This document shows, piece by piece, positions 12,085-29,552 of a stretch of 32,000 nucleotides of DNA. Location: positions 90,001 to 122,000 of the forward strand of contig JBHLMI010000002.1 in NCBI GenBank assembly GCA_048938295.1, written 5' to 3'. How positions within the stretch are numbered: the first letter of the stretch is position 1; the number at the start of each line of letters is the position of its first letter. Both the position numbers and the translations under genes were made by a program. The notes below the pieces were generated by a model. It saw only the letters and a list, made by a program, of their open reading frames with translations. It was not told the DNA's origin and did no database searches. The DNA comes from Promethearchaeota archaeon (lineage in GTDB: Archaea; Asgardarchaeota; Hermodarchaeia; Hermodarchaeales; Hermodarchaeaceae).

Positions 12085-13991
12085 TCCTCAATAATATGGA
12101 TTGCTTGATGGGGACATACATCCACACATACACCACAACCATTACACAAAGTGGTCTCGATTCGAGCTTTATCAGATTCGTTATCCCAGACACACGCTGG
12201 ACAGTTGAATTCAACAGAGCAAATCTTACATTTTTCTCCAAAGCATTTGTCTTTCTCAACCATAAACCTAGGGGTGGGTTCTTGTCGTTGTCTCCTTTGG
12301 CGATTGGATATTAATGCACATTCTCGTCGAAAGACGATAGCTTGGCTTTCCTCGGAGTTCAAGGCCTTATAGACGGTATCGATTGATTCCTTGAGATTAA
12401 AGGGATCAACCACCATCACCGAGTGAAAGCCAATACCCTGAAGGACTCGTTCTATGGGAACAGTAGAAGCTACATCCCCTGTGGCACTAAATCCTGTTCC
12501 AGGATGTGGTTGAAATCCTGTCATTGCGGTTGCGTTGTTATCCAACACACAGACAATAGCCTTTGATTGATTGTAAACAATGTTCACTAAGGCAGGAAGG
12601 CAAGCATGGTAGAATGTCGAATCACCAACTACTGCAATTACTGGGTCCTTGAGCCCAAATTGCTCTAGCTTGCCTAGCCCACTAGCAATCCCAACTCCAG
12701 CACCCATTGAATGTTGGTTCCGCATCACACCATGATAGAATACACCTAGCGAGTAGCATCCAATATCTCCCGTGACAATCCCTTTACCTTTATTTCGTTT
12801 GATAGCTCGGTAAATGCTATAATAAGCAGATCGATGAGGACATCCTGAGCAGAAAGTGAGAAGGCGCCGTGGAACAATATTTGCAGCATCCTTCGCCATA
12901 TTGAGATACTCTTCCTGAGCGGAAGAGTAGTTGAGTTTTTTGATAGCTGCAATCGACTTGATTGCTTGGTTGATATCAACTTCTCCATAGTTTGGAACGT
13001 GTCCGGTTAATTTTCCAAAGAATTGATGAGTATAAGCGGATGGCAGTTCCACTGCAAGGCTCCGGATTTGTGTTTCTAGATAGGGATCGACTTCTTCAAA
13101 GAAGAGCACTTCAGAGGTTTTCTTCAACCGATCAAGAATCATTGCCTTGGGTAACGGTGAAATGGTACCAATCCGAAGAATGCCAACATCTTTCAATTGG
13201 AGAATATCAACAGCTTCTCGAACGTATTTCCAAGCGATACCAGATGTGATAATTAATAAGGAGGGGTTAGCGGGTCCATCATACAGATTCAATGCAGACT
13301 TTTCAAATTCCTCGACCCGAACTTTGTCTAACCGAGTATGCAAATCACCATGCCGCAAATGAGGACGAGGAAGATTATGTAAGGGAAGCTTATAATCGAA
13401 CGTAGCAGTTCTCTGAGTGCGAGACACTGTACCAAGTTTGAAAGGAGCACGACTGTGAGCTAATCGAGTTGTTTCTCTCACCATGACGATGACGCCATAC
13501 TTTTCAGATAAATCAAAGGCATAAGGAATGATCTCCTTCGCTTCTTGATGGGTAGAGGGCTCGAGCACAACAATATCGGAATAAAATCCAAGAGGGCGTG
13601 CATCGCCCTCAGTGGTGGAGCTGTGGGCAAACGGATCATCAGCGACGATCAGGACCAATCCGCCAGGTCCATGACCAGTATAGGCAATATTAATGAGCGA
13701 ATCGAGGATAACAAAAAGTCCATTGAGTTTCATGGATGCCAAGGCCCGTAGACCAGTCCAAGCCGCTGCGGTTGCCGCTTCAAACGCGACTTTTTCATTG
13801 ACACTCCATTCAACATAGATTCCAGCATCTTTAGAAATTGTGGCTAAATTTCCTAAAATCTCTGAGGATGGTGTACCAGGATATGCCGCTGCAAAATGGA
13901 CTCCTGCCTCGAGGGCTCCACGGGCAATGGCATCATTGCCTAAGCCGATAACCGTGGTACCAGCTTTTCCGGTCATTGGGGAATTACTCAT
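12081..13991 (-). CDS. iorA: Indolepyruvate (aryl-pyruvate):ferredoxin oxidoreductase, alpha subunit
   Basis: GNDAIARG, YPGTPSSEI, EWSVNEKVAFE, DDP..HSS..E.D.R, FCSGCPHR, GDIGCYSLG, TPP motif GDSTFYH...LDNNATAMTG, C-terminal CKIC...CPA and CNGCGVCVDVCP ferredoxin domain. Confidence 0.95.
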   Translation of the reverse strand: MSNSPMTGKAGTTVIGLGNDAIARGALEAGVHFAAAYPGTPSSEILGNLATISKDAGIYVEWSVNEKVAFEAATAAAWTGLRALASMKLNGLFVILDSLINIAYTGHGPGGLVLIVADDPFAHSSTTEGDARPLGFYSDIVVLEPSTHQEAKEIIPYAFDLSEKYGVIVMVRETTRLAHSRAPFKLGTVSRTQRTATFDYKLPLHNLPRPHLRHGDLHTRLDKVRVEEFEKSALNLYDGPANPSLLIITSGIAWKYVREAVDILQLKDVGILRIGTISPLPKAMILDRLKKTSEVLFFEEVDPYLETQIRSLAVELPSAYTHQFFGKLTGHVPNYGEVDINQAIKSIAAIKKLNYSSAQEEYLNMAKDAANIVPRRLLTFCSGCPHRSAYYSIYRAIKRNKGKGIVTGDIGCYSLGVFYHGVMRNQHSMGAGVGIASGLGKLEQFGLKDPVIAVVGDSTFYHACLPALVNIVYNQSKAIVCVLDNNATAMTGFQPHPGTGFSATGDVASTVPIERVLQGIGFHSVMVVDPFNLKESIDTVYKALNSEESQAIVFRRECALISNRQRRQRQEPTPRFMVEKDKCFGEKCKICSVEFNCPACVWDNESDKARIETTLCNGCGVCVDVCPHQAIHIIEE

Positions 13992-14141: not shown

Positions 14142-15014
14142 ATGAGCCCCAAGGATGTGGAAAAAATTAAAGTGGTTGATTTTCATTTGCATGTAGGAAA
14201 ACGGGAACATTGGAACCCAGCGATTCATGCACTTTTCAAACAACTAAATCCTGGACTTTATGAAATTCAAGATCAGGTTATGACACCCGAGAATATTGTT
14301 GGTATGCTCGATGATTGTGGGGTAGATTGGGCAGTTATTCTCGCGGAGATTTCGCCAGAAGTAACTGGTGTTGTAACCAACGAATTCGTTGCTGAGTTTT
14401 GTGAAAATCACTTAGATCGCCTTATACCATTCTGTTCGGTTGACCCTACTGAAGATTCCGATCCCGCTAAGACTCTTGAACATGCAATTGGAACTCTTGG
14501 GATGCGTGGTATGAAGCTCTATCCAACGTATCAGCACTTTTATCCGAATGCATATGCAACCTCCAACGAATGGGAAAAATTAAGGAAGCTATACGAAGCT
14601 GCGGAGACACTTGATGTTCCTGTTATGTTCCATACGGGAACCAGTATTTTCCCCAATGCCCGGTTAAAATATGGAAACCCGATGTTCTTAGATGATGTCG
14701 CAACCGACTTTCCAAAAATGCCAGTGATCATTGTTCATGGCGGGAGAGGTCCGTGGTTTGAAATGGCTTTTTACGTGACACGGCTTCATCCGAATACCTA
14801 CCTTGAGGTTTCTGGGTTGCCTCCGAAGAATCTACTCCGATATTTTCCGCAACTTGAAGTAATTGCTAATAAGGTGCTTTTTGGCAGTGATTGGCCAGGA
14901 GTTCCTAGCATTGCTGAAAACATCGAGGCAATTCGAAATCTTGACATCAGTGAAAAAGCAAAGAGACACATACTTGGTGAGAACGCCATCAAATTACTCA
15001 AACTGAACTCCTAA
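14142..15014 (+). CDS. Amidohydrolase family 2 metal-dependent enzyme (possibly a BzdT/BamU-like accessory protein)
   Basis: VDFHLH, GMKLYP, VMFHTG, IIVHGG, LFGSDWP. It sits next to the bzd operon. Confidence 0.88.
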   Translation: MSPKDVEKIKVVDFHLHVGKREHWNPAIHALFKQLNPGLYEIQDQVMTPENIVGMLDDCGVDWAVILAEISPEVTGVVTNEFVAEFCENHLDRLIPFCSVDPTEDSDPAKTLEHAIGTLGMRGMKLYPTYQHFYPNAYATSNEWEKLRKLYEAAETLDVPVMFHTGTSIFPNARLKYGNPMFLDDVATDFPKMPVIIVHGGRGPWFEMAFYVTRLHPNTYLEVSGLPPKNLLRYFPQLEVIANKVLFGSDWPGVPSIAENIEAIRNLDISEKAKRHILGENAIKLLKLNS

Positions 15015-15030: not shown

Positions 15031-15249
15031 TCATTTAGGTCTTGTAAAGATGGTGACAAGAGTACAGTCATCAGCTTCGATACACTTATCACAGGTTCGA
15101 TCAGTCTCAACTTCAGCTGTTGGTAAGATCAGCACTTCAAACCCTAATTCTTCATAATTGGCTTTGTATTCAGCAGCACGATGTTTTTCGACACTGAATC
15201 GTTTCTCCCAGCCCTGTTTTTCTAACTCTTTTTCTGTCGGATTATCCAT
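15031..15249 (-). CDS. Small hypothetical protein with CxxC; last gene of the bzd operon
   Basis: ELEKQGWEKRF...YEELGFEV...CDKC...TIFTRP. GGGTG RBS before ATG 15249; alternative ATG 15279 is 5 nt after the BzdV stop. Confidence 0.7.
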   Translation of the reverse strand: MDNPTEKELEKQGWEKRFSVEKHRAAEYKANYEELGFEVLILPTAEVETDRTCDKCIEADDCTLVTIFTRPK

Positions 15250-15284
15250 CGAAAACACCCGAAATAATTGAGAGACCATTTCGT

Positions 15285-17795
15285 TTAGAACAGGTCATCA
15301 AGTTCATCTTCTCCTGGCATTTTCCCATGATCTTGTACATACTGTTGAAGGAGTTCAGTTTCCCGTTTTGTGTACATAGGATCTTCTTCAAACTGGAAGA
15401 ATTTGGCATTAGGTTGTTGGGTCATCTTCTCTTTCAGCGCTGCTTGAAGATCACCAGTTCCCTTGATAATTAAAACCGTCTTTTTCAAATCTGCGAGTAT
15501 AAATACACCAGGTCTTGATGGAATCTGATCAATTTGCTTTTCTTCAAAGATAAGCCAAGCTTCCGGAGGCATCGTAGGCGGAGTCAATAATAATCTAAGA
15601 TCACACTGTAGACAGCGCTGAGCCTCCTTTTGTGCCACTTCAAATGGAAGGGCTAGCTCAACCTCTTCAAAGGATGAAACACGGACATGCTTAGGAAGCA
15701 AGGGCAATTCTGCACGCTCCCATTTGAAGAAGCCCTCATCACGTCCCAATTGGTGGGTGATTTTTGGTTCACCCGTAAGACTCTCAACGAGGGAGCCTGT
15801 GCCACCCAAAAAGGTATCAATCTGTGAAGCAGCTTGACGGCCATTGGCCATTGCTTCCACTACAGAGGTGGGTCCTGTTACTACATCGCCAGCCGCGAAG
15901 ATCCCACTAACCTGGGTTTCCCAAGAGTTCTCTTTCGTTGCTAGAGTTCCCTTTTCTGTAATTTTCAATTCTATTCCATTATTAATTTTGGATAGATCAA
16001 CGGATTGGCCCACCGCAAAGAAAACAGTATCTGCGTTGATGGTTTGCGTGGTTTCTTCATCAAAGCTGGGATTGAAGCAACCTTTCTCATCAAAAACACA
16101 GGTACACCTTATTAATTCAATCCCCGCAACCTTTCCACCTTCTCCAAGAATCCGTTGAGGTCCCCAGGACGTTTGAAGCTCAACACCTTCATCCACTGCT
16201 TCAGAAACTTCCCATTCATGCGCTGGCATTTCTACATCTGTTTCTAAACAGGTAAGCATCACTTTTTCAGCGCCTAAACGGATAGAGGTCCGCGCAACAT
16301 CAATTGCCACACTTCCGCCACCAACAACAATGACATCATTCCCAAGATCTGGTTTCTCTCCTGTATTCACTTTTCTCAAGAAGTCTAATCCATTAAACAC
16401 ACCGGAGAGATCATGACCCTCAATCAATAGATCTTTACCCGCTTGTGTCCCGATGGCGAGTAGTACAGCATCAAAGTCGTCTTTTAGTTGAGGAACAGAG
16501 ATTTCAACACCAATGGGAGTTTCTGTTCTAATCTTTACACCCATTTTGGTAAGAACTTGAATATCAGCATCTAACACTGTTCGTGGTAGCCGATAGGTGG
16601 GAATCCCAGATCGAAGCATTCCTCCTGGTTCCTTTTGCGCCTCAAAGATGGTTACATCATGGCCTAATCGCGCGAGGTAGAAAGCAGCACTTAGACTAGA
16701 AGGCCCAGATCCGACAATTCCTACACGTTTTCCTGTTGACGTGGAAATTGATAGCTCTGATTGCCATTGACCAGTATCATTCTCAATAGCAGTTCGTTTG
16801 AGTCCCAAAATGCATAAAGCCCCATTGAGATCTGTTCGCCGACATTTCTCTTCACAAGGATGATGGCATACATGACCTAACACGGATGGGAGTGCAGCCT
16901 TTTCGCGAATAACTGCTGTAGCTTGTGTATAATCACCTACCGCTACCAGACGGAGGTATCGTGGAATATCAATTTGCAGGGGGCAGCTATTGACACAGGG
17001 AAGCAATACAGCCTCTCGATCAGCCCAGATAACTTTTTGATCTAATAGTGCACCAGTGGGACAAACCTCTACACAAGCCCCACAGAATTTACAGCCAGAT
17101 TCACCCAGACTTTGAGCTTTTGATCCAACGATTAATTGCTTCCCGTCAAAAGCCATCCCTAATGCATCAATGCCACGAAGGTCTCTGCAGGCTCTAATAC
17201 AACGAGTGCATCCAATGCATAGATTGTAGTTGCGGATGATTAATGGTTCATCTTCAATTTTCGGAAGCTTTTGGGGAACGTAACGGGGGGTATCTTCCCG
17301 AATGCCCACATATTCTGCGACCTTCTGCAGTTCACAACGTCCAAATTTCTCGCAACATCTTTCATCAACGGGAACATTGGGTGGGCAAGGCTCACGGGCA
17401 CACCCTTCTCGTTGTGCACAGGTTAAACATGCATGGGGGTGAGTAGATAATATTGAAACTAACTTTTCTTGACGGTGTGCAACAATTGCTGGCGTGACAG
17501 TAAACACAACCATTCCTTCCTCAACAAGGGTATCACAAGCTTGAAGAATTCCATCCCGTCCTTCGATTTCAATTGCACAGAGACCACAGCCCTCATACAC
17601 TACATTCTCTCCAATGTTTTTAATTTCTTGACTCCCACGAAAGACATTACCAGTGGTTTTGGTTCCCACTCCAGATGGCAAATCGGGATGGTAACACAAG
17701 CGAGGAATGTACACATCCACAGACTCAGCTGCAATTAGTAAGTTCGAGCCCGCATCTACTTCAGCTTCTATACCATTTATTGTCAATTTTACCAT
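15285..17795 (-). CDS. bzdV: BzdV-like multi-domain Fe-S flavoprotein (NuoG/HydA-like Fe-S N-terminus, GltD/NfnB-like FAD/NAD(P) core, GIY-YIG-like C-terminal domain)
   Basis: LCYHPDL...GCGLC...QAC [2Fe-2S]; HPHACLTC...C; CIGCTRCIRAC and CKFCGACVEVCP; PCVNSCP...GHVCHHPCEEKCRR; GSGPSSL; GGGSVAID; FAAGDVVTGP; EAQRCLQC. Position after bzdM matches bzd clusters. Confidence 0.85.
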   Translation of the reverse strand: MVKLTINGIEAEVDAGSNLLIAAESVDVYIPRLCYHPDLPSGVGTKTTGNVFRGSQEIKNIGENVVYEGCGLCAIEIEGRDGILQACDTLVEEGMVVFTVTPAIVAHRQEKLVSILSTHPHACLTCAQREGCAREPCPPNVPVDERCCEKFGRCELQKVAEYVGIREDTPRYVPQKLPKIEDEPLIIRNYNLCIGCTRCIRACRDLRGIDALGMAFDGKQLIVGSKAQSLGESGCKFCGACVEVCPTGALLDQKVIWADREAVLLPCVNSCPLQIDIPRYLRLVAVGDYTQATAVIREKAALPSVLGHVCHHPCEEKCRRTDLNGALCILGLKRTAIENDTGQWQSELSISTSTGKRVGIVGSGPSSLSAAFYLARLGHDVTIFEAQKEPGGMLRSGIPTYRLPRTVLDADIQVLTKMGVKIRTETPIGVEISVPQLKDDFDAVLLAIGTQAGKDLLIEGHDLSGVFNGLDFLRKVNTGEKPDLGNDVIVVGGGSVAIDVARTSIRLGAEKVMLTCLETDVEMPAHEWEVSEAVDEGVELQTSWGPQRILGEGGKVAGIELIRCTCVFDEKGCFNPSFDEETTQTINADTVFFAVGQSVDLSKINNGIELKITEKGTLATKENSWETQVSGIFAAGDVVTGPTSVVEAMANGRQAASQIDTFLGGTGSLVESLTGEPKITHQLGRDEGFFKWERAELPLLPKHVRVSSFEEVELALPFEVAQKEAQRCLQCDLRLLLTPPTMPPEAWLIFEEKQIDQIPSRPGVFILADLKKTVLIIKGTGDLQAALKEKMTQQPNAKFFQFEEDPMYTKRETELLQQYVQDHGKMPGEDELDDLF

Positions 17796-17860: not shown

Positions 17861-18172
17861 TTAGAGCATTTGTCCTTTTGCAGTACTAAGGAAATGAGTA
17901 ATAGCATGTGTAGGGCACACTGATACGCAAGGGGGCTCATCGTCCCCACTTGTTGTCTTACATGGAGCACAACTGTACTTGAGTTTGTGTCGATGTTCCT
18001 CTCGGACACCCAAGATGTCACCATCATCAATATCGAAATCATTTGGAACAACTTCTAACACTGATGCAGGACAGACTTCAACACATTTTCCACACCCATC
18101 ACATTTGTCTGTATCCAAAGTGATGAAATATTCCCCCGATCCATCCTTGTACCCGTAATTTGCAATCAACAT
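17861..18172 (-). CDS. bzdM: Benzoyl-CoA reductase-associated ferredoxin (BzdM-like)
   Basis: IANYGYKDGSGEYFITLDTDKCDGCGKCVEVCP...YSCAPCK...PPCVSVCP. Directly downstream of bzdQ, with an AGGTGA RBS. Confidence 0.88.
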   Translation of the reverse strand: MLIANYGYKDGSGEYFITLDTDKCDGCGKCVEVCPASVLEVVPNDFDIDDGDILGVREEHRHKLKYSCAPCKTTSGDDEPPCVSVCPTHAITHFLSTAKGQML

Positions 18173-18187
18173 TATCACCTGGATAAA

Positions 18188-19087
18188 TTAACCTTGAGAG
18201 CGTTCGTAGAGCACCTTAGCAAACAGCGCGGCTCCTGCAGCCCCTGCCAGCATCGGATCAAATCGTGGGTCATCACGCCATTGGTCTGGTTTGAGGGCTT
18301 GAATTCCCAACTCCTTTTCAACACGTTTGACTATTCCAATGTTTTTAGCAATCCCACCTGTGATAACAAATTCTTTCTCGACGCCCACTCGATTTAACAA
18401 GTCAACGACACGATGGGCCATAGCCTGGCAATACGCGGCCAAAACCTCTTCTTTTGACCAACCACTGCGAAGAAGGCCCACAGCTTCAGACTTAGCAAAA
18501 ACTACACAGGTACTACTCACGGATTGGGGTTCCTCTTTTACTGCGAAGGATCGGTCTCCGACTTCTTGGATTGGAACAGAAAGCAAATCGGCAAACACTT
18601 CCATGCCTCGACCAGTTCCCGCTGCACACTTATCATTCATTAGGAAATTCTGGACCTTTCCTTTTTCATCAACGCGAATGGCTTTGCAATCCTGACCACC
18701 CATATCAAGAACCGTTCGAACAGAAGGCCCCCACATAAAATTAGCCCCACGACCGTGACAGGCAATTTCAGTAATTGCCTTTTGTGCGAAGGGGATATTT
18801 ACTCGCCCATACCCAGTTCCTACAACATAATTCATATCTTTGAGTGTCAGTCCTGTGTCCTCCAGAGCCCAGTTCATTGTCCGCTCAGCACTATCCGGAC
18901 TGCTTGAGCCTGTTCGCATGACACTCTGTGCAAATACTTCTCCGTCAATCATGATTACAGTCTTTGAGCTGACTGAACCAATATCGACCCCTGCACTGAT
19001 AACTTTTCCATTCTTGGGATCAATGCCTTCGACTGTGTGTCGGTATTCTGGCCATCTCCAGAATTCTTCTTTAGTCATTTTCATCAC
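18188..19087 (-). CDS. bzdQ: Benzoyl-CoA reductase (Bzd-type class I), ATPase/activase subunit Q
   Basis: N-terminal FWRWPE, GVDIGSVSSK, MRTG.SSPDSA, GTGYGRVN, TEIACHGRGAN, DMGGQDCKAI, MNDKCAAGTGRGMEV, STCVVFAKSE. Confidence 0.92.
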   Translation of the reverse strand: MMKMTKEEFWRWPEYRHTVEGIDPKNGKVISAGVDIGSVSSKTVIMIDGEVFAQSVMRTGSSSPDSAERTMNWALEDTGLTLKDMNYVVGTGYGRVNIPFAQKAITEIACHGRGANFMWGPSVRTVLDMGGQDCKAIRVDEKGKVQNFLMNDKCAAGTGRGMEVFADLLSVPIQEVGDRSFAVKEEPQSVSSTCVVFAKSEAVGLLRSGWSKEEVLAAYCQAMAHRVVDLLNRVGVEKEFVITGGIAKNIGIVKRVEKELGIQALKPDQWRDDPRFDPMLAGAAGAALFAKVLYERSQG

Positions 19088-19860
19088 TCCTTTGTTCTTT
19101 CCTGGGCTACCAGAGCAGCCCCATAAGCACTCACGTATTCAGGAAACTCAGGCACATGAACTTCTACTCCTAATCCCCGCTTCATTGAGTCCACAAAGCC
19201 CACATCATAAGCGAGTCCCCCAACCAAAAGGACGTCCTCAGTTATTCCCAACCTTCGAACCATTGAAATCACTCGTTCTGCAATCGCATCATGTATCGCA
19301 CGAGCAATGTTTGCTTTTGGGGTCTGATTATGAATAAGTGAGACGACTTCAGATTCCGCAAAGACCGTACATTGTGCATTCATCGGAACGGCTTCTGTGG
19401 CTTTCAATGACATTTGACCTATCTCACTTAATTCAACTTCCAGTGCTCGGGACATGGCTTCAACAAATGCCCCTGCTCCCGCTGCACACCTTTCATTCAC
19501 CACAAAGTCTTCCATACCCCCGGATTCATTACATTTGACAGCCCGTGCTTCCTCAGCCCCGACATCAATAATGGTCCGAGCTGACAATAACAACTTGACC
19601 CCTGCTTTGGCATTTGCCCCGACTTCGCTAATACTATCTGCTGCAAATTCTACTGACCCTTGGCCAATTCCGGTCTCTGTGATGTGGGCAATGTCTTCGA
19701 GCTTCAACCCTGCAGCCTTTAAAGCCATCTCTGAGGCTTCTTTAGCAGCAATATTGAGATCAAAGCCTGTTGATGCTTTTCCCTTTCCAACTATCTTTCC
19801 ATCATCGAGGATGACGACTTTTACGTTCTTTGCCCCAAAGTCAATTCCGGCAGTAATCAT
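19084..19860 (-). CDS. bzdP: Benzoyl-CoA reductase (Bzd-type class I), ATPase/activase subunit P
   Basis: TAGIDFGAK, DVGAEEARAV, NERCAAGAGAFVE, NAQCTVFAESEVVSL. ASKHA (BadF/BadG/BcrA/BcrD) fold, located between bzdO and bzdQ. Confidence 0.9.
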   Translation of the reverse strand: MITAGIDFGAKNVKVVILDDGKIVGKGKASTGFDLNIAAKEASEMALKAAGLKLEDIAHITETGIGQGSVEFAADSISEVGANAKAGVKLLLSARTIIDVGAEEARAVKCNESGGMEDFVVNERCAAGAGAFVEAMSRALEVELSEIGQMSLKATEAVPMNAQCTVFAESEVVSLIHNQTPKANIARAIHDAIAERVISMVRRLGITEDVLLVGGLAYDVGFVDSMKRGLGVEVHVPEFPEYVSAYGAALVAQERTKE

Positions 19861-19873
19861 TTTTGACTTCCTC

Positions 19874-21172
19874 TTATTTGACTCCTAATAATTCCAAGAA
19901 AGAATCCACGGCTTTCTTCGTGCGTTCCAAATCGAATTCTCTTTCATCACCCATATTTCCTTCAAAAGGAAGTACTGGGATGCCCGCTTCCTTGAAAGCG
20001 AGACGGTTCTCTGCGATGTTCAACGATAAACCTTCACATCCGCGATTATAATGCAACATAACGCCATCAACGTTCCATTCTCGAACAATGCGGAGCATCA
20101 TGTCACTTTTCTTTTGAGCGGAATAGAAGTGCTGCCATTCAGGTCGAGAATGGGTCCAATCAGCTAAAATCTCGAGTGCCTGTTTTCGGGTAGTAATATC
20201 AATTCCTTGCTCTTGTGGTGTCGTTCTGGGACCCCAAGTGCCATCTTCTTTCACTTCCCATGCTCCAATCAAACTAAAAGTGTAAAGCGATCCAACGGAC
20301 ACTACACCATATGATTCGAGATATCGGAAAATTTTAAGAAAAGCCCATGGAGGTTGGGTGTCTGTAATAACCCGGCGTTGTTCATTACCCACTGCGGCGA
20401 TTTTGTTATTGACGCGATCTTGGACTTCGTCCCGAAGTTTTCGATAGAAGGCTACAATCTCAGGTCGATGTTTCATGATAGTTCCAAATACATAGAGTGA
20501 ATACATCGTCTTTTCATCGAGTGGTGCCGGGATTGTTTTATTCAGAGCACAAATCTCTGCCCACAGGGAAGTGGCTTCACATTCGTTGTAAACCGCTTGG
20601 ATTAGTTTTTGATCATCATAATCCCGGCCAGTGGTTTTTTCGAGCCAATCTATGCCATCTAGCAATTGATTCACAACGTATTCTCGACGGCGCTCATTGA
20701 AATCCTCAGTAAGTCCTGTGCTCACATCAATACAAAAGAAAGGCACGCCGCCTTCTAGGTCGCTAGCGATTTGATACCATTTTGCGTGACTACAGCAAAT
20801 GTGAGTGGTCCACATGAAATCTGGTTTGGGAAATTTGCCACCAAATACGTATTCGTCTAACACGACTGAACCAAGATAGTTTCGTAAATATGCACACAGA
20901 TCTCGAGCAAATCCTTTTGCTTCAATAGCTTCATGGCATCGTGCTGCAAATTCTTTGTTGAATGCAACTGAAGCCCCATATGGTTCTCCAGTGAGACTCC
21001 ACACATCGTCACCTAGACCAGCAGGAACCGCACTATAAGCCCAGGCTCCACCTGCCCATCGGATTCCACCTTTCTCATGAGCTTTTGCATAATTATCATA
21101 GTATTGTTGTCGTAACGCTTTCCCTTCATTCCAGATATCCAAAGGTTTAGTCTTGTATTTCATCTCAGTCAT
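19874..21172 (-). CDS. bzdO: Benzoyl-CoA reductase (Bzd-type class I), subunit O
   Basis: [62 protein letters not shown]. 2-hydroxyacyl-CoA dehydratase D-component family. Confidence 0.93.
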
Positions 21173-21181
21173 TTACTTCAC

Positions 21182-22306
21182 CTAAAACAGGTCGGGTAGT
21201 GCGAACGTTTCCAGAAACGCTTCAACACGAGTCTTAAACTGTCCAATTGGTACCGTTACATCAAATTCTAAGAAATAAGTTGGAATACCATTCTCTTCGA
21301 GCATTGAACGCAAAGCCGGCATATCTAATTCATGGGGATCACAGAACTTCTGTTGAATAACAAGGGCGCCTTCAACGTTGTAGTCTTTAGCCAGTTGCAA
21401 AATGTGTGGGAATCGTTTTCGAATAGGCCAGTCTTTACTAGGACAAGGAGGTCGATCAATGTACCTGGCAGAGATAGCAGCCAACCGGTCTTCTTGAGGT
21501 TCAACCGCGTTCCAGAAATATCGAGTGCCCGTACAATGTTCATCAACCACGAGTGTAGAATCTAATGACTCAACCATTTCCACAAATTCTGTGTCGTCAT
21601 CTTCACTTCCGATAATCATAAGACGAGTTCCAGTATTTCTGTCAAGTTTCCGAGTCGGTAATTCTTTTAGCACTTCTTCCAAAGCTTGATTGTGTTCTTC
21701 CTTATCGACCATTTGACTAGAAACAACCATGTACATTGCTTCGAGCCCAGTCAGAGGGGGATTTTCCTGTTTCCGAAACTCATAGACTTGTTTCATTAGT
21801 TGGCGATTCTTGTTCAAAACCTCGATACCTCGATCTATGTCATTATCCGAGATCGAGCGTCCAATCCATTTCTCCAAGGCTTTTTTGAAAACCTCCAGTT
21901 CTCCCCGTAAATATGGGTAAGCGTGTGGCGTTTGGACCCCATGGGGCATGTACATGTAATAACTGAAGTCTAGGGGAATGTGCTTGACCCAGCTATTGAA
22001 CGCTTGGCGGATATGCAGACACGATTGAGCAATCATGATACCATTGACGTAATCGAATCGACCTTTCAAACCTTGAGCCAAGCAGTCACGGCAAAAGGGA
22101 CAAAACATCCCAAAGATATGAGGTTCGGTTACATCCTGTGCCTCGTGACTGCCCAAGATGCGAACGGGAAGGATATCAGCAGCAAGAAGAAGTTCTTCGG
22201 GGACATAAGTACAGAAATAGCCGAGAACTTTTCCACCTGTTCGTTTTTTCCAAGCTTGTGCGTAGTCGTGTCGGTTAGTGTACCATTCTTTGAATTTTTC
22301 AAACAT
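21182..22306 (-). CDS. bzdN: Benzoyl-CoA reductase (Bzd-type class I), subunit N
   Basis: EWYTNRHDYA..WK.RTGGKV...CTYVPEEL, VTEPHIFGMFCPFCRDCLAQGL, HCTGTRYFWN, CPSKDWP, QQKFCDPHELD, GQFKTRVEAF. Probable start ATG 22306 (track GTG 22330). Confidence 0.93.
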   Translation of the reverse strand: MFEKFKEWYTNRHDYAQAWKKRTGGKVLGYFCTYVPEELLLAADILPVRILGSHEAQDVTEPHIFGMFCPFCRDCLAQGLKGRFDYVNGIMIAQSCLHIRQAFNSWVKHIPLDFSYYMYMPHGVQTPHAYPYLRGELEVFKKALEKWIGRSISDNDIDRGIEVLNKNRQLMKQVYEFRKQENPPLTGLEAMYMVVSSQMVDKEEHNQALEEVLKELPTRKLDRNTGTRLMIIGSEDDDTEFVEMVESLDSTLVVDEHCTGTRYFWNAVEPQEDRLAAISARYIDRPPCPSKDWPIRKRFPHILQLAKDYNVEGALVIQQKFCDPHELDMPALRSMLEENGIPTYFLEFDVTVPIGQFKTRVEAFLETFALPDLF

Positions 22307-22383
22307 CGGGATCTTCCTACCCTGAAACACACTTGGAGAAGGACGTGTTGTTCACGGCGTACCTGTGTGATACTCCTTAAGAA

Positions 22384-22435
22384 TTTTTGCAAAAACTTTT
22401 TATAATGATTGTTAATTATTCAACATTAATAAAAA
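22384..22435. promoter_or_regulatory. Divergent promoter region with palindromes (candidate operator and TATA boxes)
   Basis: Perfect palindrome TTTTTGCAAAAA at 22384-22395. Imperfect inverted repeat TTTTTAT-AATG-a-TTG...CAA-CATT-a-ATAAAAA at 22397-22435, whose arms are themselves TATA-like on opposite strands. Confidence 0.55.
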
Positions 22436-22477
22436 GAATTAGCATGAAGATGAACAAAACATCAAGGAGCTAATCAC

Positions 22478-22813
22478 TTGACCAATTGGTATACTCAAAA
22501 GACTCGAGACTTGCTTTCTGCAATCACTCACCCCTCACGCGTGGCGATTCTGGAATTCTTGTCTGACCGTGATTTTGGAACGAATAAATCATTTAGACAA
22601 CATCTCAAAACTTTACAACCTAAGGCTGGTGGTGATTCACCGGCAGTTGTTACCCATCATGTTGCTTTACTTGAAAAATCTGGTTTAGTTAAGCATTCAG
22701 TGGATGATGCTAGGGTTATAATTGCTACAGCGATGGGGCGTAGAATGATTCGATTGCTAAGACAAATGATATCAAATTCGGACTTAGAGCAGTCGTGGGA
22801 TCGGTCCCTTTAG
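22478..22813 (+). CDS. ArsR-like winged-helix transcriptional regulator
   Basis: THPSRVAILEFL...VVTHHVALLEKSGLV...TAMGRRMI. AGGAG RBS 8 nt before the TTG. Divergent from bzdN. Confidence 0.75.
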   Translation: MTNWYTQKTRDLLSAITHPSRVAILEFLSDRDFGTNKSFRQHLKTLQPKAGGDSPAVVTHHVALLEKSGLVKHSVDDARVIIATAMGRRMIRLLRQMISNSDLEQSWDRSL

Positions 22814-23454
22814 AGATTGAATCCTTGTTCGCGGAGCACTTGAGTTAGGTTCTTTCCTTGGTCTCGGGCTCGTTGTAGGAAAAATCGAAGGTAGCGATCG
22901 AAGAAAGGATTACTACCTTTTGCTGCGAGGGGTATTCCGAGGATCATGTCACCTTTTATTAGTCCTAATCGTTGGGCTGCCATTCCCACCGACCACATCA
23001 TTCGGTTATCGATGAAGTGTTGGGCGGCTACAGTTATTGCAGATGAGAGGGCAATCCCTAAATCCAGGATTTTAAAGGCACAAAGAGCCGTGGTTTTCTT
23101 TTGGCCAACCGCCTTTTCATAATCAGCACAGGTTTCGAATCCACAGGCTTTACAATCAAGGGTAAGGGGCGGGCGTTGGGCATGGATACCTATAAGGAAA
23201 ATGGCAGCACTTTCTTTTACAGCTTCAGCATCAGGTTCTAAAAACCAAAAGGTTTGACCAGTGAGGTCTTCTTGGCGCATCCTTTCGATTTCTTTGGCGG
23301 TTTGGTGAATTGTGGGTCCAGATACGATTTCAATTGTTAGATCATCGAAGCCTTTAGATTTGGGAGCAGTGGTTGCAGCTGCTGCCATTAGATTTGCTAC
23401 AGATTTAACTGCCTCGTTAGTGAGCGTCTCTCTTTTTGTTGGTATTTGATTCAC
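22810..23454 (-). CDS. DUF2148 / putative Fe-S protein
   Basis: AA.TAPK.KG.D, DA..V, CKACGFETC, CAFKILDLGIAL.SA, IDNRMM.SVG.AA, GIPL...G.NPFFDR. Confidence 0.88.
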   Translation of the reverse strand: MNQIPTKRETLTNEAVKSVANLMAAAATTAPKSKGFDDLTIEIVSGPTIHQTAKEIERMRQEDLTGQTFWFLEPDAEAVKESAAIFLIGIHAQRPPLTLDCKACGFETCADYEKAVGQKKTTALCAFKILDLGIALSSAITVAAQHFIDNRMMWSVGMAAQRLGLIKGDMILGIPLAAKGSNPFFDRYLRFFLQRARDQGKNLTQVLREQGFNL

Positions 23455-23497: not shown

Positions 23498-24787
23498 TCA
23501 GTTCTTTGGTGCTTTCCCAGTAATGGCTTTTACAATAGCCCAGAACTCCTCTTCTTTCAAACCAAGGCGGGTTTCTCGGAGGAGCTCAGCGGCTTTATGT
23601 AATTGGCGAAGCATTTCAACCTTATCTCTGAGTTTATGCGTCTCTTTCACCTGCGATACAATTTGCTGAATTTCTTCATCAGTGGCTTCGATGTTTTCTT
23701 GCTCCAGCTTAGTTTTTACAATATGACTCCCAGTATGTTTTCCCATGTAGAATTCAGTTTTCCGTCCAACCGTTTCAGCGGGAATTGGTTCATAGGTTAG
23801 CTGGTGAGAGAGGATGCCATGAACGTGGATACCTGCTTCGTGTGAAAAGGCGTTTTCACCAGTAATGGCTTTATGGACCGGAAGGAGGATGGCAAACGCT
23901 TCACTCACCAAATCAGCCAGTTCTTGGATTCTTTCGGTTTTGATGCCCGTTCGAACGTCATAAAGGAATTCGAGTGCCATGACTACTTCTTCGAATGGAG
24001 CGTTCCCAGCACGTTCACCAAAACCAGCGACACATACATGCGGAACAGTAACGCCTTCCTCTACTGCCGCCAAAGTGTTAGCAGTGGCTAGACCAAAGTC
24101 ATTATGGTTATGAATGGAAAGCTGAACTTTACCTTTGACTTCTTGGTTAAGGCGGTCACGGACGTGAGAAACCATATATCGCATCGATTCTGGTCTTAAG
24201 AAACCTACAGTATCGGTGATTACACACCGATCTGCACCAGCTTCCAATGCAGTTTTGAAGATCTTCACCGTGTTATCAATGCTCGTGCGTGAAGTATCTT
24301 CGGAAACAAAATCAACAATAACTCCGTATTTCTTTGCATATTCAACGCAATCGGTTACAATGCTTAGTGCTTCTTCCTGGGTTTTCTTTAGCTTGTATTT
24401 CAGGTGAAGATTACTGAATGCAATAAATATAGGTACTTCTTCGGCTCCTGCCTGGATGGCAACATCAATGTCAGATCTAATTGCACGAGCTGGCGCACAT
24501 AATTTGGCTTGTTTGAAACCTTCGGCGGCTATTCGACGAACAACCTCTTCTTCATCTTTAGAAACAGCAGGAAAACCCACGTTAATTATTGCAAATCCCA
24601 TCTCATCCATGAGTTTTGCTATTTCGATCTTTTCATCAATTAAAAGACTAGTGCCTGGTGTCTGTTCACCATCACGAAGGGTTTCATCCCAAATAAGAAC
24701 TTCTTTGGGTAGATATTTTGGCTTTGTTGCAGGAACTTTGTTAAAGTTAACGATTAAGCCATCTGCCTCTAATTCGTCTAACAACAT
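23498..24787 (-). CDS. DRE-TIM acyltransferase of the LeuA/homocitrate synthase/Re-citrate synthase family, lacking the IPMS regulatory domain
   Basis: DETLRDGEQTPG, SEDTSR, DTVG, HNHNDFGLATAN, GFGERAGNA, G.NAFSHEAGIH, YEP.....VG, GKHTG. 429 aa. Confidence 0.88.
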   Translation of the reverse strand: MLLDELEADGLIVNFNKVPATKPKYLPKEVLIWDETLRDGEQTPGTSLLIDEKIEIAKLMDEMGFAIINVGFPAVSKDEEEVVRRIAAEGFKQAKLCAPARAIRSDIDVAIQAGAEEVPIFIAFSNLHLKYKLKKTQEEALSIVTDCVEYAKKYGVIVDFVSEDTSRTSIDNTVKIFKTALEAGADRCVITDTVGFLRPESMRYMVSHVRDRLNQEVKGKVQLSIHNHNDFGLATANTLAAVEEGVTVPHVCVAGFGERAGNAPFEEVVMALEFLYDVRTGIKTERIQELADLVSEAFAILLPVHKAITGENAFSHEAGIHVHGILSHQLTYEPIPAETVGRKTEFYMGKHTGSHIVKTKLEQENIEATDEEIQQIVSQVKETHKLRDKVEMLRQLHKAAELLRETRLGLKEEEFWAIVKAITGKAPKN

Positions 24788-24822
24788 TTGCTTCTGCCAT
24801 CCTGTTCAATCAATATGGATAG

Positions 24823-24851
24823 TATAGACTTAAGTTTCTTTCTTGTCTATA
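24823..24851. repeat. Inverted repeat TATAGAC-N15-GTCTATA in a divergent promoter region
   Basis: 24823-24829 and 24845-24851 are reverse complements, with an overlapping palindrome ACTTAAGT at 24828-24835. Confidence 0.45.
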
Positions 24852-24892
24852 ATGTAAAAACATTTGAACTCACATCAGGCAGGAGAAAATCC

Positions 24893-25669
24893 ATGGGTTC
24901 TGGATATACTAATGTAAGAGTTGACGTCTCAGATGGTGTAGGGCAGATTTTAGTGAATCGCCCACCCTTGAATATCCTTGATCAACAAACACTGACAGAA
25001 CTTTATATGGCATTATTGGATATGAAGACAAATTCGGGAGTGAATATCGTTCTTCTTAGAACGGCAGGTGAGCGATTCTTTTCCGTTGGGGTGGATGTCG
25101 AACAGCATCTTCCTGAACATGCCCCAAAAACTTTAGAGGCATTCAATAAAGTCTTTGAAGCCCTCATTGATGTTGATAAACCTGTCATTGCTGTTGTTCA
25201 AGGGTCAGCCTTAGGCGGCGGGTGTGAGCTGGCCTTTGCTTGTGATATTGTGATTGCCGTGGATTCAGCTAAGTTTGGTCAGCCAGAAATTCAAGTAGGT
25301 GCTGTGCCTACGGTTGCTGCCGCAGCCATGCATCATTTTATTGGTCAAAAACGAACCTTCGAATTGCTTTATACTGGAGATAGCATTTCTGCTGAAAAAG
25401 CTGTACAGATTGGACTCATTAACCATGCTGTACCAGCTGATCAGTTGGAGAAGATAGTCGATGAATTTATTACTAAACTTAAGGAGCATAGTCCAATTAT
25501 GCTTCGGTATGTTCGGCGAGCCCTGTACAAAAGTAGGCATCTCGACTTTTTGCAGGCTGTAGAAAAATCGACTGAAATTTACCTCGACTCGTTGAAAAAT
25601 ACCGAGGATGCGTCTGAGGGACTCAAGGCATTCTTAGAGAAGCGCAAACCAGAATGGAAAGGGAAATAG
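24893..25669 (+). CDS. dch: Enoyl-CoA hydratase family, probably cyclohexa-1,5-diene-1-carbonyl-CoA hydratase
   Basis: RPPLNIL, FSVGVDVEQH, ALGGGCEL, AKFGQPEI (both crotonase glutamates). AGGAG RBS before ATG 24893. Context: adjacent to had and bzdNOPQ. Confidence 0.8.
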   Translation: MGSGYTNVRVDVSDGVGQILVNRPPLNILDQQTLTELYMALLDMKTNSGVNIVLLRTAGERFFSVGVDVEQHLPEHAPKTLEAFNKVFEALIDVDKPVIAVVQGSALGGGCELAFACDIVIAVDSAKFGQPEIQVGAVPTVAAAAMHHFIGQKRTFELLYTGDSISAEKAVQIGLINHAVPADQLEKIVDEFITKLKEHSPIMLRYVRRALYKSRHLDFLQAVEKSTEIYLDSLKNTEDASEGLKAFLEKRKPEWKGK

Positions 25670-25684: not shown

Positions 25685-26707
25685 TTAGGGAATAACGATA
25701 TTCCGACCAAGAACCTTGCCTTCTTCGAGGAGCTTGAAGGCTTCATTAATTTCTTCAAGTGGACGTTTGCTATCGATTATCGGTTTGATTTGAATGACCC
25801 CTTGTTCTACCATCCTCAAGAGGGGAGGATAATCGACTGCACGACAGCCCAGCGATCCCCGTATTTCGATTTCTCGGTACATGACTCGCGATGCTGAGAC
25901 AGTCCAATCGGATTCGGCATAGCCTACAACAACCATCCGTCCGCCCCATTTTACTACGGCTAATGCTTGACTCATGACATCAGGAATGCCAATGGCCTCA
26001 AAGGAGATATCTACACCTCGCTTTTGGGTTAAGTCTCGAATCTGTTTGACGGGGTTCTCATCCTTGGAGTTTATCATCACAGTAGCTCCGAGTTTTTCAG
26101 CGAGTTTCAACTTCTTGTCATCAATATCGACGGCATATACAATGCCACCTGTGGCAGCAGCGATTTGCACCACATTGATACCCACCCCCCCACAACCAAA
26201 AACAGCGACCAAATCACCTGGGCGAACTTCGCCACGATTCTTTACAGCATGGTAGGGTGTAGATATTGCATCAGCAACGATACTTGTTTCTTCTAGAGGT
26301 AATGAGTCGGGAATTCGAAAGATCTCCTTCGCTGGGACACGAATGTATTCAGCATATGCGCCATCAATGTTGTTTCCCACCATTTCTTGGCGTTGGCAGA
26401 CGTTTCCACGCCCTAATCGACAATTATCACAAAATCCACAGCTAAGAACGGCAGGAATTAATACGCGATCTCCTTTAGCCCAATTATCCACAGCAGATCC
26501 AAGTTCGGCAATAGTTCCTGATGCTTCATGGCCAAGTACCATGGGAGGTTTTTTGAAAGTGGGGGTACCATGCAAATAGTGAAGGTCAGTTCTGCATACT
26601 CCACAGGCTGCCACTTTAATCAACACATCACCCGGTCCGAGTTCAGGTGTAGGTATGTCTTCGATTTGAAGCGGTTTTCCGGCGCCATAGAATACTGCAG
26701 CTTTCAC
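25685..26707 (-). CDS. had: Zn-dependent dehydrogenase, probably 6-hydroxycyclohex-1-ene-1-carbonyl-CoA dehydrogenase
   Basis: ACGVCRTDLHY, PTFKKPP..LGHE, CGFCDNC......C, DAISTPYHA, GCGGVG, GSLGCR..DYP. Probable start GTG 26707 with an AGGTG RBS. Confidence 0.82.
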   Translation of the reverse strand: MKAAVFYGAGKPLQIEDIPTPELGPGDVLIKVAACGVCRTDLHYLHGTPTFKKPPMVLGHEASGTIAELGSAVDNWAKGDRVLIPAVLSCGFCDNCRLGRGNVCQRQEMVGNNIDGAYAEYIRVPAKEIFRIPDSLPLEETSIVADAISTPYHAVKNRGEVRPGDLVAVFGCGGVGINVVQIAAATGGIVYAVDIDDKKLKLAEKLGATVMINSKDENPVKQIRDLTQKRGVDISFEAIGIPDVMSQALAVVKWGGRMVVVGYAESDWTVSASRVMYREIEIRGSLGCRAVDYPPLLRMVEQGVIQIKPIIDSKRPLEEINEAFKLLEEGKVLGRNIVIP

Positions 26708-26947
26708 TGAGAACACCTGGGCAAGTATCTGACTTAGAACCTTATATTCTTTAGCAAGATTACATTCAATAAAAAAGTGCTTTCTCTTAGCTCAAAAGAA
26801 TTAATAGATTGATTACGTGTAGTATGAAAAAAAACATCGAAGTTCAGACAAAGAACTGAAACACCTGAGGGTGCCAAGGTTGGGATCCAAAGTTAAGATA
26901 ATTAAAAGTGTATGTCGTAGTTGCTATGGTGGTTGGGGAGAGAACCA

Positions 26948-27244
26948 ATGGAAAGCGCAGATTTGGGTGTCAAAATCCGTTTGATAGGTGTGTTGAAGAT
27001 TACAACAGGAATCGAAGATGTAAAGCTGGATTTAGAGGATAATGACACAATTGATTCTATTCTCAATAGGCTAGTAGAAAGGTACCCTGCTCTTCGTCAA
27101 GAATTGTACACTGAGACTGGTGAGATTCATAAGTATCTCAACATTTTTGTTGACAACAAACCTGTTCTTCAGCAAAATCTTAATGATATCCCGATTCAGA
27201 AGCCAACGACATTAACACTGGTTATGGCAGTTGGTGGTGGATGA
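26948..27244 (+). CDS. moaD: MoaD/ThiS-family ubiquitin-like sulfur carrier
   Basis: beta-grasp pattern (YLNIFVDN) and C-terminal AVGGG. First gene of the AOR operon. Confidence 0.85.
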   Translation: MESADLGVKIRLIGVLKITTGIEDVKLDLEDNDTIDSILNRLVERYPALRQELYTETGEIHKYLNIFVDNKPVLQQNLNDIPIQKPTTLTLVMAVGGG

Positions 27245-27267
27245 CAAACCCTCTGGAATGATCTGAA

Positions 27268-29100: not shown

Positions 29101-29552
29101 GATACATTTTCGTTTATCCTGAACGGTGCACGGGTTGCCGATTATGTTCACTTGCTTGTTCATTAACCAAATTTGGGGAATGCAACCCAAGAAAGGCAGC
29201 AATTAGTGTTGTTCGAGATGAGTTTGAACGGTTTGAGTTTCCAGTGGTATGTTTTCAATGCCAGGACGCGCCTTGTATCGCCGCATGCCCACAAAACGCT
29301 ATCACAGAGGTGGAAGGAATAACATCACGCGACGAGAACCGCTGCATTGGTTGTCGACTGTGTGCAGTTGTGTGCCCATTCTCTGCGATAACAACCCACG
29401 GTAAGGACCTAATTCGTTGTGATCTTTGTGGCGGTGATCCACAGTGCGTAAAATATTGTTCCACAAAGGCCATTGTATATGAGGAAGAAACACAGGAAGC
29501 AATGCAACGACGAAAGGTGCAATTAGCCCGGGTTCTAATTCCGGAGAAATAA
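29097..29552 (+). CDS. 4x[4Fe-4S] polyferredoxin (AOR/WOR small-subunit type)
   Basis: CTGCRLCSLAC, CFQCQDAPCIAACP, CIGCRLCAVVCP, CDLCGGDPQCVKYC. ATGA overlap with the aor stop. Confidence 0.92.
   Translation: MRYIFVYPERCTGCRLCSLACSLTKFGECNPRKAAISVVRDEFERFEFPVVCFQCQDAPCIAACPQNAITEVEGITSRDENRCIGCRLCAVVCPFSAITTHGKDLIRCDLCGGDPQCVKYCSTKAIVYEEETQEAMQRRKVQLARVLIPEK

Follow-up and report, generated by a model that had tools for sequence, protein, structure and literature searches.

The anaerobic degradation of aromatic compounds has its bottleneck in one enzyme, benzoyl-coenzyme A (benzoyl-CoA) reductase. In Azoarcus/Aromatoleum sp. CIB, the ATP-dependent class I form of this reductase is encoded in the operon bzdNOPQMSTUVWXYZA, and the BzdNO component of that enzyme has been crystallised (PDB 8s02, PMC11971306). 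The stretch of DNA studied here, called the window in what follows, is 32,000 nucleotides long (G000:C8:90001-122000) and belongs to a metagenome-assembled genome (MAG) of 2.52 Mb in 66 contigs, estimated to be 91.6% complete and 4.3% contaminated. Between its positions 17861 and 22306 lie five co-directional genes of the minus strand which, as we argue below, very probably form a functional Bzd-type (Azoarcus-type) class I ATP-dependent benzoyl-CoA reductase operon of a Hermodarchaeota archaeon.

Such a cluster has been seen before. Zhang et al. 2021, in the ISME Journal (PMC8163825), described the Hermodarchaeota and their collocated bcr genes (MAGs h02s_80, h02s_68, h03m_104 and h02s_26). 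In bin h02s_80, a single contig holds the bcr genes together with BzdV, a ferredoxin, Dch, Had, an NADP-dependent oxidoreductase and two regulators. In their trees of bcrN, bcrO and bcrQ, the subunits are closest to those of an Anaerolineales bacterium, and a horizontal transfer involving Chloroflexi/Anaerolineales was proposed. An earlier reading of the window, made from its letters and called here the sequence-only reading, had stated that the pathway was already predicted for this lineage; that statement is correct, since lineage and cluster are the same as those of 2021. The Hermodarchaeota bzd cluster has thus been known since 2021, and the present analysis is a confirmation, not a discovery. 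It goes beyond the earlier work in comparing residues with a structure published in 2025, in placing Bathyarchaeia as equally close kin, in formally rejecting a single Asgard origin, in delimiting a six-gene core that crosses phyla and a block of about 27 kb that is present or absent between species, and in estimating selection.

Other relatives are known. Class I reductases have already been published in MAGs of Bathyarchaeota, Thermoplasmata and Lokiarchaeota, and in marine Chloroflexi. Ferroglobus placidus and marine Anaerolineae/Dehalococcoidia (PMC5736913) are strict anaerobes with an ATP-consuming class I enzyme of the Bzd type, accompanied by a ferredoxin and by bzdV; Ferroglobus respires Fe(III). 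The enzymes MbdONQP (PDB 9g87/9gai) and Thauera BcrABCD are likewise built of four subunits from the same Pfam families, but are only distantly related.

Comparing the window with the Azoarcus operon, whose gene roles are taken from PMC5658619, we find the same order, N-O-P-Q-ferredoxin, with a BzdM-type ferredoxin and a BzdV-like oxidoreductase as candidate counterparts of BzdM and BzdV. The two differ in that the host is here archaeal; that bzdS, bzdT and bzdU are absent, with bzdV directly after the ferredoxin gene; that the cluster has neither a BzdR-type regulator nor a bzdA ligase; and that the hydratase, dehydrogenase and hydrolase are divergent, scoring below equivalog cut-offs, and lie outside the bzd transcription unit. 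The order bzdN-O-P-Q-M, the tight coupling of the genes and their ribosome-binding sites had been noticed in the sequence-only reading, and the coordinates bear them out: the gaps are of 9 nt between N and O, 13 nt between O and P, and 9-15 nt between Q and the ferredoxin gene, and the ATG of bzdQ (19084) overlaps the stop codon of bzdP by one base. A Shine-Dalgarno-like motif, of type GGTGA, AGGAG, GAGGAAG or AGGTGG, stands ahead of every start: AGGAG precedes bzdQ, and the ATG of bzdN at 22306 has GGTAGGAAG upstream. The operon promoter likely lies in the AT-rich region that separates bzdN from its divergent neighbour, where a TATA-like cattataaaaag is found about 95 nt upstream of the bzdN ATG.

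The family assignment begins with four adjacent and co-directional genes that match PF06050 (HGD-D) twice and PF01869 (BcrAD_BadFG) twice. Three of them pass the cut-offs of the NCBIfam equivalog models of the Bzd type: BzdN with 517 bits on TIGR03190 (cut-off 453.8), BzdO with 622 bits on TIGR03191 (448.6), and BzdQ with 407 bits on TIGR03192 (380.2). No curated model specific to BzdP turned up in the NCBIfam scan; the protein matches PF01869 over its full length and scores 193 bits on TIGR00241 (cut-off 125). Against the crystallised BzdNO, the matches run over the full length, at 594 bits for BzdO (8s02_A) and 499 bits for BzdN (8s02_B). The scores against MbdO and MbdN, the subunits of 3-methylbenzoyl-CoA reductase, are 38 and 108 bits; the best PDB match of BzdQ is MbdQ (9gai_D), with 209 bits. 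A Thauera-type BcrABCD enzyme was considered and rejected: the models TIGR02259-02263 yield 44, 133, 159 and 124 bits for cut-offs of 313-578, with the BcrB model at 44 bits against 487 and the BcrC model at 133 against 421.

The two Pfam families are shared with the 2-hydroxyacyl-CoA dehydratases, and one may ask if N, O, P and Q are not a dehydratase and its activator, used in amino-acid fermentation, instead of an arene reductase. The closest solved relative of BzdP is the activator HgdC (167 bits), and the host is likely a peptide fermenter, with aminotransferases and a 2-oxoacid:ferredoxin oxidoreductase of the indolepyruvate type (IOR) close by. However, the HadB and HadC equivalogs score far below their cut-offs (133 against 750 bits, and 175 against 700), where the Bzd models pass; the matches to HadB/HadC in the PDB (3o3m) are of 98 bits for BzdO and 159 bits for BzdN, to be compared with 594 and 499 for BzdNO; the cysteines of the double cubane of BzdN and its shell of arginines and histidine are kept; and there are two distinct ATPase subunits, as benzoyl-CoA reductases have. 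The dehydratase, whose grouping with N and O the sequence-only reading had named as the outcome to fear, is already effectively refuted, and we give it next to no chance.

The structure of the Azoarcus enzyme (Fuchs et al. 2025, PMC11971306) allows a comparison at the level of single residues, which we made in 82 aligned rows of homologues. In the crystallised BzdO, three cysteines (Cys95, Cys128 and Cys380) ligate the aqua-[4Fe-4S] cluster, and Glu65 and His131 adjoin its water; the counterparts here are C93, C126, C379, E63 and H129, all invariant in the 82 rows. The benzoyl group sits in a pocket of Trp46, Tyr97, Leu302 and Leu383, and Tyr97 also contributes, with Tyr298 and Gln274, to binding the thioester oxygen (PMC11971306); W44, Y95, L301, L382, Y297 and Q273 stand at these places and are again invariant, as are E380 and G381. 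Cluster ligands, Glu/His pair, and benzoyl- and thioester-binding residues are thus identical to those of Azoarcus. In BzdN, the [8Fe-9S] double cubane of 8s02 has six cysteine ligands and a shell made of Arg53, Arg267, Arg290 and His330 (PMC11971306). The shell corresponds to R57, R270, R293 and H333, which, together with C40, C77, C80, C104, C266, C296 and C330, are kept in 81-82 of the 82 homologues; seven conserved cysteines are aligned here for six described ligands. The ATPase subunits each have an invariant pair of cysteines, C125 and C164 in BzdP (78 rows), C154 and C194 in BzdQ (70 rows), at a spacing that fits the bridging cluster of an activase-type ATPase. Because of these family scores and of this conservation of residues, the dehydratases can be dismissed and benzoyl-CoA is the most likely substrate.

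The fifth gene encodes a ferredoxin of the BzdM type with matches to Fer4-family Pfam models and two [4Fe-4S] clusters, presumed to be the electron donor. Its homologues adjoin bzdQ in 72 loci across phyla. They make up a family of their own, marked by NYGYKDGSGEYFI, a motif conserved at the N-terminus, and by about 10 extra residues inserted in the second cluster motif. It is followed by a BzdV-like iron-sulfur flavoprotein whose N-terminus has 2Fe-2S and NuoG/HydA-type iron-sulfur (FeS) domains and whose core is GltD/NfnB-like; its PDB matches are 9bov_A (392 bits), NfnA 9n5u_A (360 bits) and NfnI 5jca_L (210 bits). In all phyla, most loci with bzdNOPQ also encode this protein, at 39-54% identity; it is presumed to be an NAD(P)H:ferredoxin oxidoreductase: BzdV has been labelled a "putative NADPH:ferredoxin oxidoreductase" in print, and the likeness to the NfnB/GltD type fits this label. 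We use the name BzdV as Zhang et al. 2021 (PMC8163825) and PMC5736913 do. The last 90 or so residues of the BzdV-like protein match a DUF7508 domain (30 bits).

Transposing to the present operon the steps established for the characterised enzyme, we may sketch how it would work. Electrons for the BzdM-type ferredoxin would come from NAD(P)H by way of the BzdV-like flavoprotein, of the NfnB/GltD type, or else from the 2-oxoacid:ferredoxin oxidoreductase encoded close by; the ferredoxin would pass them singly to the [4Fe-4S] cluster that bridges the BzdP/BzdQ ATPase dimer. ATP hydrolysis would then yield an electron of very low potential, sent through the [8Fe-9S] double cubane of BzdN to the water-bearing [4Fe-4S] cluster of BzdO, where benzoyl-CoA would be converted to cyclohexa-1,5-diene-1-carbonyl-CoA by hydrogen-atom transfer, with the assistance of Glu63 and His129. 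The nearby hydratase, Zn-dehydrogenase and Oah-like hydrolase could carry the product to ring opening, and the genes for thiolase/DUF35, hydroxyacyl-CoA dehydrogenase and hydratase could lead on to beta-oxidation.

We now turn to the host. Among GTDB species representatives, the loci nearest to the BzdO of the window come from nine MAGs, at 83-95% identity, that are labelled Candidatus Hermodarchaeum yapensis, Candidatus Hermodarchaeota, H03M_Hermod_104 (93%) and H02S_Hermod_124 (83%), or bear generic archaeal labels; the two Hermod bins are from Zhang et al. 2021. Assigning a host from these neighbours alone would be circular, because a bzd gene is transferable, and three independent lines were therefore used. 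By genome-wide classification, the GTDB genus of the source genome also holds named Hermodarchaeota MAGs; at their bzd loci, YT2_032, a MAG named as Hermodarchaeota, and ERP108616_co2_263 give match profiles identical to those of two genomes of the same genus (G095 and G104). An orthologue of the Arf-family GTPase of the window, of Asgard type, is linked to bzdO in three further assemblies (G094, G104 and G106), where the two genes share a contig and are 15-16 kb apart. Finally, the composition of the operon is that of its genome: its GC content of 45.1% compares with 45.7 +/- 2.0% for the whole genome, and in tetranucleotide usage it stands between the 58th and the 74th percentile of 5-kb windows for distance from the genome mean. 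Synteny with the source contig extends across nine Hermodarchaeota loci.

These data also bear on the possibility that the cluster is foreign to an Asgard host, on a mis-binned or chimeric contig of a bacterium or a Bathyarchaeon. The closest BzdNO kin outside Hermodarchaeota are those of Bathyarchaeia and Anaerolineae, and the MAG has its estimated 4.3% of contamination. But the bzd block is embedded in a contig of 164.6 kb, with both flanks colinear with a congener that lacks bzd; the link between bzdO and the Arf-like GTPase recurs in three independently assembled MAGs; GC and tetranucleotide make-up are typical of the genome; and nine named or related Hermodarchaeota assemblies show the same synteny. 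The contig is from Hermodarchaeota and is not chimeric. The foreign contig, which the sequence-only reading had singled out as a danger, is already effectively refuted by genus placement, GTPase linkage and base composition, and is extremely improbable. Two public records, 'Candidatus Odinarchaeota archaeon H3S.115' and 'Promethearchaeota archaeon H2M.135', have a BzdO that is 94-95% identical and nested in the Hermodarchaeota clade; their labels are probably imprecise.

The genes of the operon are under strong purifying selection and are not relics. Between the source genome and five other Hermodarchaeota species, where the synonymous divergence (dS) ranges from 0.4 to 1.9, the ratio of nonsynonymous to synonymous divergence (dN/dS) is 0.01-0.03 for BzdQ, 0.02-0.04 for BzdO, 0.02-0.05 for BzdN, 0.05-0.10 for BzdP, 0.04-0.14 for the ferredoxin and 0.08-0.12 for the BzdV-like protein.

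The history of the module was approached with a tree of concatenated BzdO and BzdN (82 rows, 810 columns, LG+C20 with posterior mean site frequencies, SH-like approximate likelihood ratio supports; the midpoint root serves for drawing only). The Hermodarchaeota form a fully supported clade in which H02S_Hermod_124, a bin of the sister genus, is first to branch. Together with Bathyarchaeia and two Anaerolineae, they make up a clade of 17 rows with 100% support, whose internal order is unresolved and whose sister is Anaerolineales. The same 17 rows can be recognised in the BzdO alignment: at positions 122-123, beside the cluster-binding CCSH motif, exactly 17 rows have Thr-Thr/Ser, all others having Gln-Asp, and these are exactly the Hermodarchaeota, Bathyarchaeia and Anaerolineae of the clade. 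Another fully supported clade, beside Aminicenantes and "Eubacteriales", gathers the ten BzdNO rows of three other Asgard families. Constraining the Asgard rows to a single group costs 99 log-likelihood units (approximately unbiased test, p = 1.2e-5), and because the BzdNO of Hermodarchaeota thus stand apart from those of other Asgard archaea, the tree points to at least two acquisitions of BzdNO by Asgard archaea. In one Asgard MAG (G032, family f7), three full-length copies of BzdO are found on contigs C341, C373 and C388, with matches starting at bases 414-975, which suggests a strain mixture or mis-binning rather than a triplication.

The model TIGR03191 passes its cut-off in 57 of 400 sampled genomes of the phylum, in 9 of the 15 species of the genus, and in at least one genome of the sister genus. 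Our reading is that the module entered the Hermodarchaeaceae horizontally before the two genera split, and that it was later lost in some species; it would have come from a gene pool common to Bathyarchaeia and Anaerolineae, the other Asgard acquisitions being separate. The phylogeny of BzdNO proposed in the sequence-only reading thus gives a grouping with Bathyarchaeia and Anaerolineae and at least two Asgard origins; as for the direction of transfer, and the donor, they can only be inferred, because the tree is unrooted and holds no Azoarcus and Ferroglobus references.

How much of the neighbourhood belongs to the module can be read from a comparison, by tblastn, of all the proteins of the window with 95 loci. 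A core of six genes, for the BzdV-like protein, the ferredoxin, and BzdQ, P, O and N, recurs across many phyla: it is found in Bathyarchaeia, Thermoplasmata, other Asgard archaea, Anaerolineae, Aminicenantes, Gemmatimonadota, Planctomycetota, Ignavibacteria and others. A longer arrangement, at 71-97% identity, is specific to Hermodarchaeota and runs from iorBA through the 3-hydroxyacyl-CoA dehydrogenase: iorBA, the amidohydrolase, the core, an ArsR-like open reading frame (ORF), the DUF2148 protein, the isopropylmalate-synthase-like protein, the hydratase, the Zn-dehydrogenase, the ThiS-like protein, the AOR-family enzyme with its FeS and flavoprotein partners, and the dehydrogenase.

The limits of the block appear in a congener without bzd (G100, 89% complete), one contig of which is colinear with contig C8 of the source genome from 90.4 to 100.3 kb, and resumes at 131,046 up to 148.6 kb; between the two colinear stretches are a divergent IOR pair and one unrelated gene. 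About 27 kb (C8 ~104.0-131.0 kb, or from ~14,000 in the window to past its end) are cleanly missing from this congener. Given the colinearity on both sides, the segment is therefore present or absent as one block, which supports the complete local unit supposed in the sequence-only reading. A search for direct repeats at the edges of the block gave only chance-level matches of at most 19 nt, and nothing there points to the border of a mobile element. At the left edge, iorBA is 41-53% identical to the IOR pair found at the same place in bzd-less congeners, for 66-78% in the flanking genes, which suggests that one paralogue has replaced another or that the boundary of the block was rearranged. 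On the opposite side of the IOR pair, the bzd-less congeners have an orphan gene of 332 amino acids (aa). The features of the window are collected in Table 1.

Table 1. Features of the window, in order of position, with their strand and main properties
Feature	Coordinates	Strand	Properties
Arf-family GTPase	5409-6257		Asgard-type
iorB + iorA	11470-13991	-	indolepyruvate-type 2-oxoacid:ferredoxin oxidoreductase; left edge of block
Amidohydrolase_2 protein	14142-15014	+	PF04909 145 bits; 81-89% conserved in Hermodarchaeota bzd loci
82-aa ORF	15031-15279	-	5 nt downstream of bzdV; 77-82% conserved in Hermodarchaeota loci
BzdV-like iron-sulfur flavoprotein	15285-17795	-	836 aa; 65 nt after ferredoxin
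BzdM-type ferredoxin	17861-18172/18178	-	103 aa from ATG (18172); presumed electron donor
bzdQ	18188-19084	-	298 aa from ATG; putative ATPase/activase subunit
bzdP	19084-19860	-	258 aa; putative ATPase/activase subunit
bzdO	19874-21172	-	432 aa; putative catalytic subunit, aqua-[4Fe-4S] cluster and benzoyl-CoA site
bzdN	21182-22306	-	374 aa from ATG at 22306, open frame extends to GTG at 22330; putative electron-transfer subunit, double-cubane [8Fe-9S] cluster
Divergent intergenic region	22307-22477		~170 nt, AT-rich; candidate operon promoter
111-aa ORF	22478-22813	+	divergent from bzdN; possible ArsR-like regulator
DUF2148 ferredoxin-domain protein	22810-23454	-	PF09918 92 bits; dN/dS 0.05-0.15
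Isopropylmalate/homocitrate-synthase-like (HMGL)	23498-24787	-	PF00682 + HCS_D2; TIGR02090 414 bits, cut-off 485
Enoyl-CoA hydratase, Dch/BzdW candidate	24788-25669	+	PF00378 189 bits
Zn-dependent alcohol dehydrogenase, Had/BzdX candidate	25685-26716	-
ThiS/SAMP-like, AOR-family tungsten enzyme, 4Fe-4S protein, PadH-like flavoprotein	26921-30807		PadH-like flavoprotein on minus strand; set conserved in Hermodarchaeota loci
AOR-family enzyme	27268-29100
3-hydroxyacyl-CoA dehydrogenase (lower pathway)	30875-31795	+	NF004474 377 bits, cut-off 408
MenB/BadI/Oah-like crotonase, ring-opening hydrolase candidate	31880-32000 (3' end)	-	345 aa, C8:121880-122917

To the left of the operon, the IOR subunits score 599 bits on IOR_alpha (cut-off 651) and 169-179 bits on IOR_beta; the amidohydrolase is the first gene of the block that is missing from the congener; and the 82-aa ORF has no family hit. 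On the right, the 111-aa ORF has sub-threshold matches only, to HTH_20 (E 9e-4) and HTH_5 (E 9.5e-3); it is 74-87% conserved in Hermodarchaeota loci and absent from the other loci of the 95-locus matrix. Of the elements that the sequence-only reading had listed around the reductase, the iorAB pair, the BzdV-like protein and the AOR-family tungsten enzyme are present, and the regulator of its own comes down to this sub-threshold ArsR/HTH_20 match. In the same matrix, the DUF2148 and HMGL proteins occur in every bzd locus of Hermodarchaeota and in that of no other phylum, and both are under purifying selection. In the ESM Atlas, the DUF2148 protein finds only generic DUF2148 clusters from archaea and bacteria.

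The hydroxyacyl-CoA dehydrogenase and, on the same contig, the Asgard-type GTPase are where the sequence-only reading had seen them. The dch and had genes that it had placed nearby have their counterparts in the hydratase and the Zn-dehydrogenase of Table 1, which both score below the equivalog cut-offs. What supports the candidates for Dch, Had and Oah is their conserved adjacency to bzd clusters in several phyla: homologues of the first (25-51% identity) stand beside bzd in many phyla, those of the second (49-57%) in loci of other Asgard archaea and of Acidobacteriota, and orthologues of the crotonase (61-63%) beside the bzd clusters of other Asgard lineages. This crotonase has a C-terminal extension with weak zinc-ribbon matches (E 6e-4), which is unusual for its family. 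The contig continues past the end of the window with the rest of the crotonase gene, two thiolase/DUF35 pairs, a ligase like acetyl-CoA synthetase, an F420-type oxidoreductase and another hydratase. In several phyla, bzd is likewise found with thiolase/DUF35 pairs.

The AOR-family enzyme was considered as a class II BamB reductase and rejected: it scores 385 bits against the P. furiosus AOR (1aor), 240 against AorB (8c0z) and 219 against BamB (4z3w). In another Asgard family (f10, loci L086 and L090), an AOR-family enzyme and an FeS partner, 38-41% identical to those of the window, are found less than 10 kb from bzd. On the minus strand, the ORFs 30818-31150 and 31147-31629 match no family; they overlap the plus-strand gene at 30875-31795 and are probably shadow ORFs.

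A functional operon of the Bzd type acting on benzoyl-CoA has to be weighed against several contrary points. Its BzdO differs from 8s02 at only two of the described positions, both in the second shell. Ser44, the partner of the catalytic Glu in 8s02, is replaced by Gly, as it is in 80 of the 82 environmental homologues; and Gln124, which in the crystal structure adjoins a solvent molecule hydrogen-bonded to the catalytic Glu (PMC11971306), is replaced by Thr. Further down the pathway, the Dch candidate scores 143 bits on TIGR03189 for a cut-off of 292.5; the best match of the Had candidate is TIGR03201, at 266 bits for 338.65; and the models for Oah (172 bits, cut-off 464.45), BadI (198) and MenB (207) all leave the crotonase below their cut-offs. 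A search of the genome for a benzoate-CoA ligase yields nothing above the cut-off, the best score being 262 for 375 bits. The transcripts that Zhang et al. 2021 found were recovered at more than 60% identity only (PMC8163825). The tree, besides being unrooted, has no rows from Azoarcus, Aromatoleum or Ferroglobus, and its loci are the best 80 of a contig scan. Lastly, the organism is presumably a strict anaerobe, and its use of a reductase that is costly in ATP calls for an energetic explanation; there are precedents for the ATP-dependent enzyme in anaerobes, in Ferroglobus and in marine Chloroflexi (PMC5736913).

Some of these points would be accounted for by a Bzd-like aryl-CoA reductase that acts on another thioester: methyl-, hydroxy- or amino-benzoyl-CoA, for example, or one that arises when aromatic amino acids are broken down. 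The two second-shell replacements, of which that of Gln124 is found only in the clade of Hermodarchaeota, Bathyarchaeia and Anaerolineae, the lack of a benzoate-CoA ligase above the cut-off, and neighbours that include IOR, aminotransferases and an unusual AOR-family enzyme all lean this way. Yet the first shell (W44, Y95, Y297, Q273, L301 and L382) is identical to that of the crystallised enzyme and invariant in the 82 homologues, and the specialised 3-methylbenzoyl-CoA reductase, with scores of 38 and 108 bits, is a very remote relative. We regard another substrate as improbable, and keep benzoyl-CoA.

One could also imagine that the operon is intact but plays another role, in detoxification or in a biosynthetic or reverse reaction, without any growth on aromatics. 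About 6 of the 15 species of the genus do without the operon, which makes it dispensable, and neither a ligase nor a peripheral pathway was identified. But the block holds candidates for every downstream step of ring opening and beta-oxidation, it is gained or lost as a single unit, and all its parts are under strong purifying selection, which leaves such a role very improbable.

It is tempting to carry the argument one step further and to conjecture that the block of about 27 kb is a self-contained island for the fermentation of aromatic acids or aromatic amino acids in an Asgard archaeon that does not respire, in which IOR and the tungsten oxidoreductase would supply both aryl-CoA precursors and low-potential electrons. 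Asgard archaea would have gained such islands at least twice, from different donors, in the form of a six-gene BzdNOPQ-ferredoxin-BzdV cassette circulating among sediment anaerobes of more than 10 phyla. We put this picture forward as a tentative one, and consider it rather unlikely to hold as a whole.

What is gained over the claim of 2021 is confidence and testability: the match to the structure of 2025 is nearly residue for residue, the genes are under selection, and the host is assigned. A discrete block that is present in one species and absent from its sister offers a natural comparison for field studies. The two or more origins of BzdNO to which the tree points call for caution before the trait is treated as ancestral to Asgard archaea. 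If the enzyme is active in Hermodarchaeota, these archaea would have a part in the degradation of lignin- or petroleum-derived aromatics, or of aromatic amino acids, in anoxic sediments.

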